DNA from: Mustelus asterias
Taxonomy: Eukaryota
Assembly: GCF_964213995.1 (NCBI RefSeq)
Contig: NC_135815.1
Span: 54,932,001 to 54,996,000 of the forward strand
Direction of reading: 5' to 3'
Length of the DNA: 64,000 nucleotides
This document shows positions 4,230-47,704 of the stretch, piece by piece; positions within the stretch are counted from its first letter, which is position 1; every line of letters starts with the position of its first letter. The position numbers were made by a program, and so were the translations under genes. Below the pieces are notes generated by a model that was not told the DNA's origin, searched no databases, and worked only from the letters and a program-made list of their open reading frames with translations.

Positions 4230-5335
4230 TGTTTTTATAGTGATATAAATGGACGGCACGGTAGCACAGTGGTTAGCACTGCTGCTTCACAGCTCCAGGG
4301 ATCTGGGTTCGATTCCCGGCTTGGGTCACTGTCTGTGTGGAGTTTGCACATTCTCTTCGTGTCTGCGTGGGTTTCCTCCAGGTGCTTCGGTTTCCTCCCA
4401 CAGTCCAAAGATGTGCGGGTTAGGTTGAATGGCCATGCTAAAATTGCCCCTTAGTGTCTTGAGATGCGTAGGTTAGAGGGATTAGCGGGTAAATGTGTAG
4501 GGATATGGGAGTAGGGCCTGGGTGGGATTGCGGTCGGTGCAGACTCGATGAGCCGAATGGCCTCTTTCTGCACTGTAGGGTTTCTATGATTAAAGGCACT
4601 AATCACTCATAAGGCAGTGAGTGAACATATTGTGGGACAATTTATTTGAGCTATTCACACATATATACATGCATAGAAAGCTCGACAATTCAGAGCTGTG
4701 CTGTGCTCTGCCCACAGGCAAAAATGAAACTGAAACTGGATCACATGACACACTTCCCTTCAAGTGCAATCCTCTAAAAGCATATTATAACATTCCCCTT
4801 TCTTTTTAAAGACATCTGCCCCCCACTTCTTCAGAGGTATAACTACTTACAATAGATGTTCATATTTAGTTACCATTATATATGGACTGGTGAACCTATA
4901 AGGCTCTAAAGCGTAGAGATAATCTGCTAGTCTGGAGGTTTCTTCAATTGTTCACAGTGATCTGTGAGATTGTCATTCTGATTGCATTTGGGATTTAGTT
5001 TTCTATACAATTGAACAGTGGTTGAGGAGCTGGAATGCATTTGATTTGTCTTCAGTTATGTCTGACTGCAGTGCCTTTGTGTATAGTGATTTCACTAGTG
5101 ATTGTTCTGGTTGGCTCAGAACAAATCCTTGTCACCTCAGCTAGTTGCCACATGCCTTCTGTGGAATCCAGAATGTAAATTTGCTATCCCAACAAAGACA
5201 CAGCTAAGGAGTAGCCGGGGGTCTGAGGGTGGTTTCACCTTCACAGCAACACAGGTTGCATCTCTGGTGGTGGTAGGGGAGATGTTACACAATGTCCTGC
5301 AATACCAACTTCAATAGTATCTCGCCACGATGTAT
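4230..5335 (-). mobile_element. 3' end of a Gypsy element: LTR (4230-4792, interrupted by a SINE), PPT and integrase tail
   Basis: On the minus strand, PPT aaaaagaaaggggaa precedes TGTTATAATATGC (4792), and the LTR ends ...tatcactataaaaaCA (4230). Both ends match the LTR at 18443-18681. Internal QIYILDSTEGMWQL resembles QVHIPDPTTG-IWQP of the Gypsy at 14160/18040. Confidence 0.75.
4251..4590 (+). mobile_element. HE1-type V-SINE (tRNA head, CR1/HER1 tail)
   Basis: A box (gcacagtggttagc), B box (ggttcgattcc), V-domain (gtctgcgtgggtttcctcc), and a CR1-like tail ending ttctatga. Confidence 0.92.
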
Positions 5336-5567: not shown

Positions 5568-6180
5568 TGTGGTGAACCATCGTTGGTTCCCACCAGGTAG
5601 TACTGAGCCAGGGTCTGGCCAGTACTATGAGTCTGTATATATGTTGCTGTTGGGGTTAGGGTTGGGTTGTTCTACATGTTACTCTTGGGGTTAGGGTTGG
5701 GCTGTTCTACCTGTATTATAGTTATGATGGTACATCCCAGTCGGGCTCCGCCTCCTGGGAGAGGTATAAAGGTCACTGCTCTGTCTGGGACCCCTCAGTC
5801 TGGGATCGTGTATTATATATGGTAGCTCTATTGTAGTAGTTAATAAAAGCCTTTATTTCCTCGAGCATCTCTAGCCTCGTGAGTTATATCGCGCATCAAT
5901 TTTATTAACTACTACAGTAGAGCTACCATATATAATACACGATCCCAGACTGAGGGGTCCCAGACAGAGCAGTGACCTTTATACCTCTCCCAGGAGGCGG
6001 AGCCCGACTGGGATGTACCATAATAACTATAATACAGGTAGAACAGCCCAACCCTAACCCCAACAGTAACATGTAGAACAACCCAACCCTAACCCCAACA
6101 GCAACATATATACAGACTCATAGCACTGGCCAGACCCTGGCTCAGTACTACCTGGTGGGAACCAATGATGGTTCACCACA
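5568..6180. mobile_element. Palindromic LTR-derived element: full LTR 5568-5898 plus inverted U3-R copy 5900-6180, 5-bp TSD GGTCA
   Basis: 281-bp inverted arms (5568-5848 / 5900-6180) with about 5 mismatches. Termini TG...CA, TATAAA at ~5765, AATAAA at 5842. ggtca at 5563-5567 and 6181-6185. Confidence 0.9.
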
Positions 6181-6249: not shown

Positions 6250-6402
6250 CTAGGAAAAACAGGAGAACATTCACGCGGTTGATCCCAAATATGAAGAAAT
6301 TTTCTAATAAGGAGAGGTTAAGTAGGTTGGGCCTGTATTCGTTGGAAGAATAAGAGGCAACCTTATTTAGACATATAAGATTCTCAAGGAGCTTGACAGG
6401 GT
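6250..6402 (+). mobile_element. Old CR1 3' fragment, left part (continues at 9458)
   Basis: Decayed ERLSRLGLYSLE..RGNL...YKILKELDRV CR1 C-terminal motif. Confidence 0.75.
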
Positions 6403-6404
6403 TT

Positions 6405-9400
6405 TATGAATTCATTTACGGGATATGAGTGTTGCTGGCTAGGTCAACATTTATTGTCCATCCCTAGTTACCCTCCAGAATGTGGTTGAAGGTTGCCTTC
6501 TTGAACCACTGAAGTCACTGAGGTGTAGGTACACCCACATTGCTATTAGGGAGAGAATTCCAGGATTTTGACCCAGCAACAGTGAAGGAACAGCGATTTA
6601 TTTCCAAATCAGGATGGTGAGTGACTTGGGCCAGAACTTCCAGGTAGTGGTGTTCTCAGAGTATCTGCAGCTCTTGTACTGGTCATGGGTTTGGAAGATG
6701 CTGTCGAAGGAACCTTCATCAGTCCCTCTCGTGCATCTTATAGATGGTACACATTGCTGCTATTGCTTGTCAGTGGTGGAGGTTCTGAGTGTTTGTAGAA
6801 GGGGTAGCAATCAAGCTTAGTCCCGAATGGTGTCAAGCTTGCTGAGTGTTTTTGGAGCTGCACACATCCAGGCAAGTGGAGAGTATTCCATCACACTCCT
6901 GACTTGTGCCTTGTAGATGATGGACAGGCTTTGGGGAGTTTAGGAAATGAGTTCCTTGCCGCAGGATTCCTAGCCTTTGATCTGCTCTGGTAACCACAGT
7001 TTTTATATGGCTAGTCCAGTTCACTTTCTGGTTAATGGTAACCCCCAGGCTGTTGATAGCGGGGATTCAGCGATGGTAATGTCATTGAATGTCAAGGACT
7101 GATGGTTAGATCCTCTCTTGTTGGAGATGGTCATTGCCTGGCACTTGTGTGGCACAAATGTTACTTTCCACTTGTCAGCCCAAGTGAGAATATTGTCCAG
7201 GTCTTGCTGCATTTGGACATGAACTGCCTCAGTATCTGAGGAGTCACGCATAATACTGAACATTGTGTGAACATTCCCAGTTCAGACCTTATGATGGAAG
7301 AAAGGTCACTGATGAAGTAGCTGAAGATGATTGTGCCTAGGTCACCACCCTGAGGAACTCCTGGAGCTGAGATGAATGACCTCCGCCACCACAACCATCT
7401 ACCGTTGTGCTAGGTATGAATCCAACCAGTGGAGTGTTTTCCAGCTGATTCCCATTGAGTCCGGTTTTACTCAGGCTCCTTAATGCCATACTTGGTCAAA
7501 TGCTGACTTGACGTCAAGAGCTGTCACTCTCACCTCATTTCTGGCATTCTGCTCTTCTGTTCATGTTTGAAACAAGGTTGTAATGAGGTCAGGAGCTGAG
7601 AGACACAGGCCGAACCCAAACTGAACATTCACAAGTAAGTTATTGCTTAGTAAGCAGTGCCTGATAGCACTGTTGATGACCTCTTCCATCACTTTACTGA
7701 TGATTGAGAGTAGATTTATGGGGGGGCAGTAATTAGCCAGGTTGGATTTTTCCTGTTTCTTGTGTACAGGACATAACTGGGCAATTTTCCCCATTGCTGG
7801 GTGAATGGCAGTGTTGTAGCTGTACTGGAACATCTTGCCTAGAGGCATGGCAAGTTCTGGAGCACAAATCTTCAGGACTATTGCCGGAATATTGGCAGGG
7901 CCAATAGCCTTTGCAGTATCCATGCCTTCAGCAGTTTCTTGATATCATGTGAAGTGAATCAAATTAACCAAAGACTGACATTTGTGATGCTGGGGACCCC
8001 CCGAAGGAGGCCGAGGTGAATCATCCACTCAGCACTTCTGACTGAAGATTGTTGCAAATGCTTTAGCCTTATCTTTTGCACTGATGTGCTGGGCTCCTCC
8101 GTCCTTGAGGATGGGGATATTTGTGGAGTTTCCTCCTCCAGTAAGTTGTTTAATTGTCCACCACCATTCATGCTGGATGTGGCAGGACTTTAGAGCTTAG
8201 ATCTGATCTGTTGCTTGGGGTTGGCTTAGCTCTGCCTATTACTTGCTGCTTATGCTGTTGGGCATGCAAGTAGTCCTGTGTTGTAACTTCACCAGGTTCA
8301 ACTTCACCAGGTTCAACTTCACCAGGTTGATGCCTCACGTTTAAGTATGTCTGGTGTTGTTCCTGGAATGCCCTCCTGTGCTATTCATTGAAATAGGATT
8401 GATCCCCTGGCTTGAAGGTAATGTTAGAGTGGGAAAGTAGGCTGGTCCATGAAGTTACAGATTGTGGTTGAGTACAATTCTGCTGCTGCTGATGGCCCAC
8501 AGCACCTCATGGATGCCCACTATTGAGTTGCTAGATCTGTTCAAAGTCTATCCCATTGAGCATGGTGGTAGTGCCACACAACACAATGAAGGGCATCCTC
8601 AATGTGAAGACAGCTCTTTGTCTCCACAAGAACTGCGCAGTGGTCACTCCTACTGACACTGCCATGGGCAGATGCATCTGCAGCAGGCGTATTGGTGAGG
8701 ACGAGGTCAAGTAAGCTTTTCCCTCTTGTTGGTTCCCTCACTACCTGCTGAACTTCCAGTCCACCAATTATGTCTTTTAGGACCTGGCCAGCTCAGTATG
8801 TGGTGGTGCTACTGAGTCATTCTTGGTGATGGACATAAATTCCCCACCCAGGGTACATTCTGTGTCATCAGCTGAGGGGGGACAGTACATGATAATCAGC
8901 AGGAGGTTACCTTGCCCATGTTTGACCTTAAGCCATGAGACTTCATGTGGTCCAGAGTTGATGCTGAGAACTCCCAAGGCAACTCCCTCCTGTCTGTAAA
9001 CCGCTATGCTGCCACTTCTGCTGGGTATGTCCTGCTGGTGAAACAGGACATACCCAGGAATAATGATGGTGGTGTCTGTGAGTATGACTATGTCAGGCTG
9101 ACTAGTGTGTGAGAGACAGCTCTCCCAACTTTGGCGCAAGACAGGATAGTCCCTTTGTAGTTGTTGAATACAACTGAGTGGCTTGCTAGGCCATTTCAGA
9201 GGGTATTTAAGAGTCACCCGTATTTCTGTGGATCTGGAGTCACATGTAAGCCAAACCAGGACGAACATTAGTGAGCTAGCTTTTACAACAATTGATAATG
9301 GTTTCATGGACATCATTAGATTTTTAATTCCAGATGTTTTATTGAGTTTAAATTCCACCATCTGCCATGGTGGGGTTTGAACCCGGTTCCCTGGAGGGTT

Positions 9401-9457
9401 ACCCTGGGTCTCTGGATTACTAGTCCAGCGACAATACCACTGCACCATCACCTCCCC
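6405..9457 (-). mobile_element. Decayed APE-RT LINE (CR1/Jockey-group, clade not determined) with a tRNA+Deu SINE-like 5' end
   Basis: APE motifs (QPDIVILT, SGPHEVSW, YCPPS, PTRG..LLDLVLT, SDH) and RT motifs (KA.GP.NIP, QFGF, GVPQG, WADKWKVTF). The 3' tail is shared with Deu-SINEs. 9150-9457 is a tRNA-like head plus Deu domain. Confidence 0.85.
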
Positions 9458-9747
9458 CATGTTGTTTCCCCTTGTGGAGAGTCTGGGACCAGAAGGGATC
9501 ATCTCAGAGTAAGGGGTCGGCCATTTAAGACAGAGATGAAGATGAATTTCTTCTCTCAGAGGGTAATGAATCTATGGAATTCTTGACCATAAAGAGCTTT
9601 AGAAACTGGATTATTAAATGTGTTCAAGGCTGAGGTAGACAGATTTTTAATCAGTTAGGGAATCAAGGGTTGTAGGGAAAAGGCATGAAACTGAAGTTGA
9701 GGATTACTATATCAGTCATGACCTCATTGAATGGTGGAGCAGATTCA
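9458..9747 (+). mobile_element. Old CR1 3' fragment, right part
   Basis: LFPLVES..TR.DHLRVRGRPFKTEMKMNFFSQRVMNLWNS, colinear with 6250-6402. Confidence 0.8.
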
Positions 9748-11043: not shown

Positions 11044-11424
11044 AGGAAATGCACATCCTTTCTCAACAGTTCCTTCAGTGACGAAGACCTCTGAACAAAA
11101 TTGATAATGTTTGGAGAGAAGAAATTACAGAGACCTAGACATCTTTGAAGATTTTCCTTCCTCTTGAAGAGTAGGCATGGCTTTAATATCCTCTATTTTA
11201 CTTTGATCAAGATGTACGTCAGTGCTGGAATAAATAGAACTGAAGAAATTGACCTGTTGCATGTTGATGTTGTATTTCAGACTGTTGACACCAATGCTTC
11301 ATTATGTACCACTTGCTTCAACATGTGCAGATTATGGTCATGTTCTTGCTTTGTTCTTCCCACAATAACAATGCCACCGGTGATACAGTGGTGCATCGAT
11401 GGTTCAGTGCATGTAATGCCATCC
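11044..11424 (-). repeat. Inverted copy of the Gypsy RT segment 12385-12760
   Basis: The reverse complement aligns along its length (roughly 85% by eye). The ORF track shows matching peptides at 11164(+) and 12350/12379(-). Confidence 0.9.
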
Positions 11425-11550
11425 ATGTGGAAAATATAGATGCCATCATACCATCTAATGTGTTTGCCAATGTTAAATGATCTGTCCTAAGAAAGTTGAC
11501 AACCACTCATTCTTGGCCAAGATTGACACAGAGCCAAGTACCAACAAACT

Positions 11551-11655: not shown

Positions 11656-14195
11656 GCTACCTCTGTGATTTCTAAAAGACATGGAGAACCATGGTGAATC
11701 CTACTGCTGTGGAACTCTCAGTGATATAATGGTTCACTGACTCCATGCGCAGGATCCTTAGTCCTGAAGTATGAGTACAATAAATCTGCCTGGGTGGCAC
11801 AGATGTTCTGCATCATGGAAACTAAAGGTTGCAATACTACCAGCTTGCCATTCGATCACACGAGGGAAAATCCATGGAATCAGTCAGAAAGTAATCCTAG
11901 CACCTCAGTTCATGATCTAAAATTGAAATATCCAGAATGTCTCAACAAAATTGGCAGTTTCAAGTGAGCTGCAACATTACACTTGCTGGAGAATGCAGCA
12001 TCCACTGACAAGTCAAATTAAAGGTCAAACTAGATAAAATGGAGAAAGATGGTATCATTAGAAGAGTACAAGATCGCACATACTGGTGCAGCTCAATTAC
12101 ATATGTCCTAAAGAAGGACCGATCATTGAGAGCATGCTTTGGTCCACAACATTCAAGCTCAACTTTGAAACATTGTCCTTACAAAATACTATATTGGAAG
12201 AGTTGAACAAGAAATTTGCAGGTGCAAAATTATTTTCAAAACGTGATACCAAGCATGCTACTGGTCCACACATCTTGCAGAGAAGTTCCAAGCTTAATAA
12301 ATTTCAGACCCTGCTCAGCCAATATTACTTTCAATGACTTCCTTTGCAGTTAGCTCTTAGTCAGAATCTCTTTCAAGCTCACAAGAACGGCATTACATGC
12401 ACTGTACCATCGATGTACCACTGTATCACCGATAGCATTGCCGTTGTGAGAAGAACAAAGCAAGAACATGACCATATTCTGCTCTTGTTGATGCAAGCGG
12501 TATATAATGAAGCATTGGTGTCCAACAGTCTGAAGTACAACATCAACATGCAACAGGTCAATTTCTTCAGTTCTATTTATTCCAGCACTGACATACATCT
12601 TGATCAAAAGTAAAATAGAGGATATTAAAGCCATGCCTACTGTTCAAGATAAAGAAAATCTTCAAAGATGTCTAGGTCTCTGTAATTTCTTCTCTCATTG
12701 CCAGTTTTGCTCAGAAGTCTTCATCACTAAAGGAATTGTTGAGAAAGGATGTGCTTTTCACAAAGTCCACCAACACCTCTTCGTAGCACTGAATCAGCGG
12801 AAGAATCCACGTTGTAATTTTACAATCCTAGGGAGACAATTTCCCTGCAGATTGATGGCTCACAGATACCTTGCATACTATAAAAAGGCAAACCAATAGC
12901 ATTTGCTTCAAAGTCTGAAATGCAATCCAACCACTCCAACGTCAAGCAGGAAACATTAGCTTTAGTGTTTGGAATCATACATTTTCATACCTATCTATTT
13001 GGCAAATGATTTGTGGCAGAAACTATTCACAAGTCACTGGAGATGATTTGATGAAAACCATTGACCAGTGTACTACCAAGATTGAAATGTCTGTTGATAA
13101 ATATTCAATGTTATGACTGGAACATTTGGTACAAGCCAGTTAACTTGATGGATTTCCTAACCCAGTGAAAACAGAAAGTATATCCTTAGATCTAAAGGTG
13201 ACTTCACTAATATTGAACTTGAAGATGTTCTCCTGATTGATTTGATACATTTTGCAAAACACAAATGCCAGCAGCTATAAGAAGAAACAGTGAAAGATTC
13301 TACACTTCAGAAACTATGGATAACCATAATTGAAGGAAGACCTGATTCTATCTAGCATGTTCGTGGACATGTGAGTCCATTTTGGCCTTCCTGGGATGAG
13401 ATAGACATCGGGGAACAGGTCATCATGCCAGAATCTTTGTGACCTGATAGATTTAAACAACTTCATCACTCATACATGGGCATGAGAAAACTCACAAGAG
13501 AGGCAGTCCATTAGGTGGGCACGAACAATGATCTTGAAGTCAGTGTCAAGAAGTGTGAAGCATGTCAAGAGGATTGGCTGAGTCAGCATGATGAATCACT
13601 GATTCCAAATGAAGCTTCTACCTATCCTTAGTCCACAATCACATCTGATCTCTTCCATGTAAGTTGCACTGACTTTGTCATCATTATCAACTATTTTACC
13701 AAATACCTCATAATTCGACATTTGTACAATATGTCAAGCACAACTGATGCATACTGAGCGCTATTTTCAGTTTATCTGGTGCACCTAAAGCAATCATACG
13801 GAAAATTGTATGCCATTTCAAGATATGTGCGAGAAGTGAAATATTGATTACACTACTTCTTCTCATTACCCAAGATCTAATGGCCACGCTGAATAAATGA
13901 TTTGCACAGTGAAATTCCTAATTCTCAAACGTAGATAGACCAAACAAGGTCAACACAATGTTAAATATGAAAGCGACATCTGTAAGTGCAAATACTCCAT
14001 CACCAGCAGAGCTCATGTTTGGCAGACCAGTGCATACCAATGTACCCACTCTTCTCCATTCTGCTCACTAAGAAATTAGCAAGCAGCTTTTAAAACTGCA
14101 AGAGAAGATGACCAACATATACAACAAATGTGCCAATGCACGATTGCCAAGTTTACAGTTGGGACAACAAGTTCACATACCAGATCCCACAACAG

Positions 14196-25759: not shown

Positions 25760-26120
25760 GGGGCGATGGCCTAGTGGCATTATCGCTAGACTATTAATCC
25801 AGAAACTCAGCTAATATTCTGGGGACCTGCGTTCGAATGCCGCCACGGCAGATGGTGGAATTTGAATTCAATAAAAAAAAATCTGAAATTAAGAATCTAC
25901 TGGTGACCATGAAACCATTGTTGATTGTCAGAAAAACCCATCTGGTTCACTAATGCCCTCCAGGGAAGGAAATCTGCCATCCTTACCTGGCCTGACCTAT
26001 ATTTGACTCCAGAGCCACAGCAATGTGGTTGAGTCTCAACTGCCCTCAGGCAACTAGGGATGGGCAATAAATGCTGGCCAGCCAGTGATGCTCACGTCTC
26101 ATGAATGAATTTTTAAAAAA
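25760..26120 (+). mobile_element. Deu-SINE (SacSINE1-like)
   Basis: tRNA-like head, Deu core (aatctgccatccttacctggcctgacc...gactccagagccacagcaatgtggttga), tail ctagggatgggcaataaatgctggcc. Confidence 0.88.
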
Positions 26121-32834: not shown

Positions 32835-33845
32835 CATTGGCACAAAGGAAGATGGTTGGAGGTCAATCATCTCAGCTCCAGGGCACCACTGCTGGTGTCC
32901 CTCAGGGCAATGTCCTAGACCCAACCATCTTCAGCTGCTTCATCAATGACTTTCCTTCCATCATAAGGTCAGAAATGGGGATGTTTGCTAATAATGGCAC
33001 AATGTTCAATACCATTCACGACTCTTCAGATGCTGAAGCAATCCATGTCCAAATGCAGTAAGACCTGGACAATATTTAGGCTTGGCTGACAAATGACAAA
33101 CAACAGTTGCACCACACAAGTGCCAGGCAATAACCATCTCCAACAAGCTATTCAGTCACATTGCCAAGACTGAATCCCCCAATATCAACATCCTGATGGT
33201 TACTGATGATCAGAACCTGAACTAGACTAGCCATATGCCAGAGCAGGTCAAAGGCTCGGACTCCTGTGGCAAGTAACTCACCTCCTGATTCCCCAAAGCC
33301 TGTCCATCATGTTCAAGGCACAACCCAGGCGTGTAATGAAATATTCTCCACTTGCCTGGATGAGTGCAGCACCAACAGCACTCAAGAATCTTGACACCAT
33401 CCAGGACAAAGCAGCCGTTTGATTACTACCCATTCCACAAACATCCAATCCCTCCACCACCAACGAACAGTGGCAGCAGTGTACACTACCCACATGATGC
33501 ACTGCAGGAACTCACCAAGTTTCCTAGGCAGCACCACTGCAGCACCACTACAACCACTACCACCGAGAAAGAGAAGAGTAGCAGATACCTGGGAACACCA
33601 CCACCTGCAAGTTCCCCTCCAAATCACTCACCATCCTGACTTGGAGATCTATCGCCATTCCTTCACTGGTGCTGTGTCAATGGCATGAAATTCCCCCCCT
33701 AACAGCACTGTAGATGTACCTACACCTCAAGGACTGCAGCAATTCAAGAAGGCAGCTCCGCACCACCTTCTGAAGGGCAGCTAAGGATGGGCAATAAATG
33801 CTGGCCTAGACAGCGATACCCACATCCCATAAATGAATAAAAAAA
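32835..33845 (+). mobile_element. 5'-truncated copy of the LINE family at 6405-9457
   Basis: GVPQGNVLDPTIFSCFINDFPSII and the same 3' tail (gggcaataaatgctggcc...cacatcccataaatgaataaaa). Confidence 0.88.
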
Positions 33846-46040: not shown

Positions 46041-46200
46041 GCTCCAAGTCAGCAAGCACAAACTGCTCTTGCACAAAGTTAGCATGGAGATGATGAGCCA
46101 AATAGCCTCTTTGTGTGTTGTACTCACTCTGTGATTCATGAAAAATCAACAAACCATGTTGGCAATAGTGCTGCTTAGTAGCACAATGTTAATTGTGTTT

Positions 46201-46560
46201 CTTTTTATTCATTCATGAAACATGGGCGTCGCTGGCTAGCCAGCATTTATTGCCCACCCTAGTTGCCCTTGGAGGACACTTGAGAGTTAACCATATCTCT
46301 GTAGCTCCGGAGTCACATGTAGGTTAGACCAGGTAAGGACAGCAGATATCCTTCCTTATAGGACTTTAGTGAACCAGATGGGCTTTTCCAAAATCGACAA
46401 TGGTTTCATGGCCATCGGTAGATTCTTAATTGCAGGTTTTTTTATTGAATACAAATTCCACCATCTACCGTGGTGGGATTTGAACCCAGGTCCCCAGAAC
46501 ATTAACTGAGTTTCTAGATGAATAGTCTAGCGATAATACCACTAGGCATCACCTCCCCGA
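46201..46560 (-). mobile_element. Deu-SINE (SacSINE1-like) inside the 5' LTR
   Basis: Reverse-complement match to 25760-26120. Confidence 0.88.
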
Positions 46561-47704
46561 GGGAAGTTAATTGTATATTAATTGTGTTTAAATGTATCCA
46601 GGTGCGAGGCATTAACATGGCATTCACTTAAGCCCCTATGAATAGATGGATAGAGATTGAAACTATGGTTCTTGGGTTGGGAAGTAGATGCTTGTCGTAA
46701 GTAACTCTATAATTAATTGGAAACATGTGTAAAAATTGGCTGCAGTTCTGTGTATCACCAATTGGCTTATTCGAATAGATTGTGGCAGCAGAGAATGGTT
46801 GCCTAAAGGTGAAGATTGAAAGCTAAGTACATTTTTTAAAAATCAGATAGGAAAGTACAATCGTAGTAGTGATTGTAAAAAATGGCAGAAAGCAAGTGTA
46901 AGTTGTTGGGGTATGATTACACTCTGACATTCAAAGTGTTACATCACCATATGACCAGCGGAAGAATGAAGTGGATATGTGGACACAGGTTGTGTCACTA
47001 CCAAAGAGAAAACAAGGTATGCCCTTGGTGTTGATGCTTCCTACCAACAATAAAGCATTTTGTGAGCTGAATTCCCATCAGTTGGATATGACTTTCTATT
47101 AGAGTTCTGGGAAAACATTTACCAGGCAAATGATCTGTTAAATGCCCGTGAGGCATAGTTAACTTTGGATAGATTCCAAAAAATGATGGTTATTCCGTGG
47201 AAGAATGTACCCTGGATTTTAATGGCCCACATGAAAGATGGCTAAAATTAATTTGGGAAACCTCAATCAGTACCAGAATTACATGCTGAGTTGGTGTCTC
47301 AAACGGGCAGGCTGCTGGTTCTAATTGATGCTCAGTTTACAACAAAGAAGAAGACTCTAGATCAGACGTCAAGAGTTTTGTAAAAGATTTTGGGGAAACT
47401 ATTGTTTCTTCTAACTTTCATGGGGTAAGTGGAACATTTCACAAAGATTTTGAAATGGTTCAGATACTGGACACAGACAGCAATATGATGGAAGGGTTAA
47501 AGACAGACAAAATGAGGGTGATAACAACTTTAGCAGGTCTGGTTTATGATAAAAGGAAGAATTGAAACAGCAACTATGGACTAATGAATCTTTGGAATGT
47601 CCAAGCAACAGATAATAGGTGTTTCAGATGTAAGGGAGTGAAGAGTTATGAGGGTACGGCAGGAAAATGGAGTTGAGGATCATCGTATCAGATCAGTCAG
47701 AATC

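Follow-up and report, generated by a model that had tools for sequence, protein, structure and literature searches.

Within the 64-kb stretch of DNA analysed here (the window), positions 9458-6403 of the minus strand hold a decayed near-full-length LINE of the elasmobranch Zenon family (CR1 group), an old and inactive copy that begins with a tRNA-like head. Both the Zenon identity of the element and the family-wide presence of the head can be taken as close to certain. Because the head has intact A and B boxes and lies at the 5' end of a coding strand without a single run of four T (T4), the element is a putative Pol III-made coding LINE, and we consider Pol III transcription of the headed coding LINE rather probable on the strength of these sequence features. 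An earlier note on this DNA had raised Pol III drive as a possibility; the boxes and the T4 absence make it a serious one. The full picture has about an even chance of being right: an autonomous coding retrotransposon would be read end to end by Pol III from a captured tRNA promoter, be translated cap-independently and with no AUG in frame, have spread through sharks and rays in thousands of copies, and give rise to SINE-like families by losing its coding middle.

Structure of the element

The element, its host and its relatives in the window are laid out as follows.

6255..6402, plus: portion of the canonical host CR1 ahead of the insertion (alignment)
6403..6475, minus: 3' tail, consisting of the last codons, a short stem-loop region and an A-rich end; common to the short repeats and the sister LINE
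6464..9137, minus: single APE-RT frame with many stops, frameshifts and small deletions (frame and protein comparison)
9138..9171, minus: remnant of a linker found only in the LINE (gene model P0001, published consensuses by eye, non-tail continuation at 9168)
9172..9198, minus: stretch that the LINE has in common with a longer subfamily of short forms, which joins the tail at 9172 (loose ends)
9199..9362, minus: body common to the LINE and the short repeats (self-comparison alignment)
9363..9458, minus: tRNA-like head, the 5' end of the element being 9458/9457 (ARAGORN, box scan, loose ends, start of published consensuses)
9459..9720, plus: portion of the canonical host CR1 behind the insertion, as far as the 3' end region (alignment)
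25760..26117, plus: short form 1, head + body + Zenon tail, with a head of the whale-shark-consensus type (self-comparison, consensuses)
32840..33845, plus: second Zenon copy (the sister LINE), 5'-truncated to the last 1 kb, without T4 on the coding strand (self-comparison)
46202..46558, minus: short form 2, of the same build, with a probable target duplication of 9-12 nt (self-comparison)

ARAGORN called a tRNA at 9363-9451, and the box scan placed the A box at 9447-9437 and the B box at 9383-9373; in Rfam, no family reached its gathering score. The 5' end is marked in the read and contig mapping by loose ends at 9457, present in 702 and 473 contigs. Homology between this 5' part and two short repeats, as claimed earlier, is real, although it ends at 9199 and not at 9150: 9457-9279 and 9260-9199 (-) match 25762-26047 (+) and 46558-46272 (-) at 76-79% (best E 1e-34 and 4e-29). 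Near 9260 about 25-30 nt of the body are absent from the studied copy, and 8912 reads have a loose end there. The gap of some 30 bp described between the repeat-like part and the APE frame turns out to be a private deletion, since the published consensuses show about 100 more bases at this point, among them the first APE motif, which the whale shark model P0001 also carries. With only about 100 nt missing an ORF1 would not fit, and a hidden one in the deletion was accordingly rejected.

As had been proposed, the APE frame, broken as it is, runs through RT to a tail shared with the short repeats. It closes with a stop at 6466-6464, and in the self-comparison the tail (6472-6402) finds its counterpart in both short repeats as well as in the sister LINE; the sister LINE (32840-33838) is 73% alike to the studied element over 1048 columns. 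A tail belonging to the SINE-like part itself, which would have pointed to a separate insertion, is absent from the alignment of 9458-9199. All four Zenon members of the window have short A-rich ends, that of the studied copy being just A4 and so weak. Within the LINE ORF, a 15-nt unit occurs three times in frame at 8280-8325 (-), a feature private to this copy when compared with P0004.

The host CR1 is colinear on either side of the Zenon block, in support of the single insertion described before. Compared with four paralogues, about 9-10 nt of the host are gone at the insertion site, and the block lacks a flanking target duplication of at least 6 nt.

An elasmobranch Zenon with a family-wide head

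The Zenon family itself is already published. Supplementary Table 2 of PMC13343379 gives ten Zenon consensuses (seven from sharks and a ray, two from hagfish and one from coelacanth), with CarCar, RhiTyp, ScyCan, SquAca and HypSab among the names of the elasmobranch set, and a "CR1-Zenon like LINE" was noticed in a whale shark genome preprint (10.1101/443036). Within the first 400 nt of these consensuses, head and body open 7/7 of the shark and ray entries (2886-3314 nt long) and 0/3 of those from hagfish and coelacanth. The same head-APE 5' end thus recurs in the published shark and ray consensuses, a comparison of the kind that the earlier note had suggested. Three motifs from the window have exact matches in 5, 3 and 2 of the seven consensuses, and by eye the studied element resembles them over the first 330 of the 400 nt compared; from the body to the first APE motif they measure about 110 nt. 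Intact ORFs have almost gone from the copies in four families of the same source (0/2313, 1/1419, 3/612 and 0/59).

The remaining traits agree with this assignment. The element has a single APE-RT frame and no ORF1, as had been seen before, this being a general Zenon trait and not a special feature of the copy; a poly-A tail is present, if weakly (A4). Its nearest proteins are shark gene models of whale shark, Heptranchias and Heterodontus, and farther full-length relatives come from amphioxus, moth and beetle, among others. The RT phylogeny that had been called for was built with FastTree (109 rows, those with fewer than 110 covered columns having been removed and no labelled Zenon reference included), and in it the element groups with the amphioxus, moth and beetle proteins, apart from the four window CR1s and hence outside the canonical vertebrate CR1 clade. 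Membership of the L2 clade was rejected on the published consensuses and the RT tree. The lineage probably gained its head once and later gave the short forms. As a separate observation, P0001 fuses a PF06534-bearing protein to a Zenon APE start, probably through mis-annotation or exonisation.

The body had been described as a Deu domain, a label that its sequence leaves unsupported. Deu core motifs were found nowhere in the 64-kb window at up to 3 mismatches, nor by a loose pattern. Set by eye beside the AmnSINE1 Deu domain (from the supplement of PMC7245038), the body shows dispersed short stretches resembling it in matching order, with a gap-rich likeness of about 55%, whereas Deu members match SacSINE1 at 71-82% (PMC5499810); a remote relationship is conceivable. 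Deu-SINEs of the SacSINE1 type carry an L2-derived 3' tail, and here the tail is that of a Zenon LINE. The idea that the element is the parent of the shark Deu-SINEs fails on the same point: SacSINE1, the tRNA-headed SINE of cartilaginous fishes, has an L2 tail (L2-2_CM; PMC5499810) and the element and its short forms a Zenon tail, so that a parental role towards SacSINE1 was rejected and the link to AmnSINE1-type enhancers lapses. Profiles of the body and tail found no homology among 80 related loci (best E 1.7), and there was no match for Deu or body motifs in viral and prokaryote contigs, none for the junction motif in metagenome contigs, and no viral locus for the protein profile.

Absence of T-runs and putative Pol III transcription

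Pol III halts at four or more T in a row. On the coding strand of the studied copy there are 0 T4 runs in 3046 nt, and 0 in the 991 nt of the sister LINE (4,037 nt together), whereas A4 runs number 13 in the same 3046 nt. Dinucleotide shuffles predict 4.6 T4 (zero in 2/300, p 0.007), an order-1 Markov model 5.5 (P0 0.002), synonymous permutation of 873 codons 4.0 (P0 0.0085) and an order-2 Markov model 2.8 (P0 0.06); base shuffles predict 8.4 for both copies, with zero in 0/1000. TT and AA dinucleotides are similarly low (0.74 and 0.77), and A4 runs are nonetheless common. Controls were never free of T4. T4 density is 3.3-4.7 per kb in the four window CR1s and amounts to 4.6 and 8.0 in two further LINE pieces, and T4 was missing from 0/432 overlapping strand windows of 3046 nt. 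Of 80 matched related loci, 64 offered an N-free match of 1500 nt or longer, and 0/64 lacked T4 (812 observed against 758 expected); the nearest, L001, has equal T content and 7 T4 in 3012 nt. Upstream of the 80 matches ARAGORN called no tRNA, and the box scan gave no pair of A and B boxes upstream of any of 25 relatives (25/25). T4 is present in one short form. Since 10-15% extra random divergence mostly created 2-3 T4 in mutation simulations, zero T4 in an old copy reflects either part luck or a strongly depleted ancestor; the depletion itself is a matter of two copies in one genome.

These features suggest the following course of events. A tRNA-derived head may have joined the 5' end of the LINE in an ancestor of sharks and rays, as the distribution of the head implies, and its A and B boxes would recruit Pol III as an internal promoter. 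With the 3.3-kb coding strand cleared of T-runs, the polymerase could read to the end. The single APE-RT protein would then bind the 3' tail and copy the RNA by target-primed reverse transcription, which is established LINE biology, and each full-length copy would regain its internal promoter through retrotransposition. Internal deletions that join the 5' region to the last codons would finally produce short, non-coding, tRNA-headed forms with the same tail.

Several points speak against Pol III. Its RNA is uncapped, an obstacle that is not absolute because the uncapped RNA that Pol I makes of R2 elements is translated. In addition, non-LTR elements are described as Pol II transcripts, and the processivity of Pol III as limiting transcript length (PMC10886601). 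The order-2 Markov result (P0 0.06), the two-copy basis of the T4 depletion and the near-loss of intact ORFs weigh on the same side. Furthermore, read by eye, the conserved AUG in the linker is out of the APE frame in the one published consensus that shows both and apparently in three more. The following details of the 5' region were likewise read by eye from the published consensuses. Some 345 nt into the consensus, in the part that the window copy has lost, an AUG is kept in 6/7 and opens a short frame that overlaps the APE start in another frame. APE's own frame begins Arg-rich, and in the first 400 nt no AUG of that frame precedes it. Read-through of a stop codon, starting from a frame of two codons further upstream, was considered and rejected, since this frame fits that of APE in three consensuses and not in two others.

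An account in which Pol II makes the LINE RNA, from body or host promoters, is possible at rather long odds. The head would then be an RNA element, for example a 5'-end processing site or an aid to translation or stability, and Pol III would be used in the short forms only. Ribozymes that define the 5' ends of R2, RTE and Ingi offer an analogue for such a processing site, and 5' self-cleaving elements have been reported for six LINE clades. Other Zenons are without such a head and are presumed to be Pol II-transcribed (PMC6740152, PMC13343379, as far as these describe them), and the uncapped-mRNA problem would be sidestepped, albeit only if transcription begins at the head. However, this account leaves the strand-specific absence of T4 along the coding region unexplained, and the heads, like the tails, fold no better than shuffles (z-scores not significant, in decayed copies).

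Short forms and the direction of descent

Returning to the headed LINE as a putative Pol III unit, its short relatives bear on how it may have evolved. By eye, the two short repeats of the window have at least 8 diagnostic differences in common with the whale shark consensus, and the studied element follows the white shark and catshark consensuses; both head types are present among the loose ends. At the second short form (46559-46590 / 46190-46201), 7-19 extra bases separate the probable 9-12 nt duplication from the head and are partly complementary to its first bases, which suggests a 5' fold-back at insertion.

Four runs (1922 million letters of raw reads) were mapped on 8351-9550 at 80% likeness. 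Summed raw-read depth was about 15,900 in the body, 1,140 at 8911-8950 and 2,420 at 8471-8510, all of them lower bounds because depth tracks the local decay of the studied copy, and by read depth the short forms outnumber the LINE about tenfold. The short-form junction from 9199 to the tail was found in 2935 reads, with poor agreement, and that from 9172 in 3371 reads and in 641, 297 and 78 contigs. A continuation other than the tail occurs at 9168 in 310 contigs of X16. Among the matches listed, at least 5 joint rows connect 9168-9174 with APE (in up to 13 contigs of run X1 and 7 of X16); these joints, read at 80% likeness, have flanks of 21-36 nt and a spacer of unspecified length. Such bridging contigs back the head-APE link beside the published consensuses, not in their place.

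The breakpoint of the short forms falls in microhomology between the LINE 5' region and the last codons. In this they resemble SIDEs of the Persaeus type, which likewise combine 5' and 3' LINE ends across a microhomology breakpoint, but SIDEs have no small-RNA head or Pol III promoter and the shark short forms are headed. The element, for its part, has the tRNA-like head with A and B boxes of a SINE2; at 3.05 kb and with APE-RT it is not short and non-coding, a description that fits the 350-nt forms only. It is likely that the short forms are internal-deletion derivatives of another Zenon subfamily, and we infer repeated deletion from headed LINE subfamilies. The choice posed earlier, between an autonomous parent and a LINE that captured a SINE, thus loses its edge: the element is plausibly parental to the short repeats of the window, and the two alternatives are not exclusive.

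The opposite direction, in which an independent SINE lineage repeatedly gave its 5' part to LINE subfamilies, seems unlikely. Both the tenfold excess of the short forms and the scattered Deu/Nin-like motifs seen by eye in the body, which would fit an old SINE origin, speak in its favour, yet both junctions lie on the continuous 5' sequence of the LINE, the short junction sits in the microhomology just described, and Zenon is known to yield deletion forms repeatedly (PMC6740152).

Somewhat less likely still, the head could be a passenger of one ancient template switch, nonfunctional in the LINE, with the T-run absence due to composition or chance in two copies. Template-switch chimeras of SINEs and LINEs are well known (PMC4824008, PMC5499810), and both the order-2 Markov result (P0 0.06) and the generally low TT (0.74) would agree with it. 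However, AA is as low (0.77) and A4 runs are common, relatives of equal T content retain T-runs, and recognisable boxes persist in 7/7 published consensuses, which cover both shark superorders and a ray. Finally, a one-off chimera or a chance SINE insertion in front of a LINE would fit the missing target duplication around the block, but is ruled out for practical purposes by the same 5' end in 7/7 published consensuses, together with the head part having no tail of its own and the bridging contigs from two runs.

Other repeats in the window

A 281-nt inverted repeat (5568-5848 / 5900-6180) has arms that are identical at 276/281 positions and lie 51 nt apart. Both carry a TATA-like motif and one resembling a poly-A signal, comparable to LTRs or Penelope-type pseudo-LTRs, and the structure is either very young or an assembly fold-back. 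A second inverted pair of 386 nt (11046-11429 / 12380-12759) is 90% alike, with about 950 nt between its arms. Another family of tRNA-headed SINEs, about 350 nt long, has copies up to 93% alike at 4243, 9940, 23725, 26450, 28860, 30888, 56725 and 61827, and presumably resembles the shark V-SINE HE1.

Comparison with known systems

Elasmobranch Zenon as described in PMC13343379 has the same 5' sequence (by eye, first 330 nt), a single APE-RT frame, no ORF1, an A-rich end and a length of 3.2-3.3 kb. The main text of that paper contains 0 matches to "tRNA", 0 to "promoter" and 1 to "SINE", and we found no discussion there of a Pol III-type head, T-run depletion or short derivatives. Our literature search, which covered sources other than Repbase, Dfam and subscription journals, likewise returned no account of a tRNA-headed Zenon or of a Pol III-transcribed autonomous LINE.

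The textbook division assigns Pol II to coding LINEs and Pol III to short non-coding SINEs (PMC10886601). If the Pol III reading is true, a 3.3-kb Pol III coding element would break this division, and would constitute a natural long translated Pol III RNA, implying cap-independent translation. Whichever polymerase is used, dropping the middle of a headed LINE is a one-step path to a SINE. This route bears on the origin of SINE bodies, and a large class of shark "SINEs" would have to be annotated as Zenon derivatives.

Of the Deu-SINEs SacSINE1 and AmnSINE1, SacSINE1 is alike in its tRNA head and differs in its tail (L2 against Zenon); by eye, the likeness of the body to the Deu domain stops at the scattered motifs described above. 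CR1-Zenon tails are used by bivalve SINEs (PMC11481361). A possible precedent for a headed LINE is RTE-1_DAn with its relatives, an RTE-clade LINE with tRNA-like sequence that is covered by a one-sentence mention (PMC5786205). Similar in build are the bipartite SINEs from RTE and Vingi (Bov-tA, CoeSINE4, SINE2-1_EBu), which likewise consist of a tRNA head, a LINE 5' part and a LINE 3' part; there the head was added to an already deleted LINE, whereas here it sits on a full-length coding element, and CR1-group donors are not among the ORF-less bipartite clades listed in these sources (PMC5786205, PMC7245038). The Persaeus SIDE of lepidopteran Zenon is made in the same manner from Zenon 5' and 3' ends, with several origins and microhomology at the breakpoint, but, according to its description, lacks both homology to tRNA and a Pol III promoter (PMC6740152). 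In sharks the LINE itself is headed, and because the parent already carries the head, its deletion products would be SINE-like at birth.
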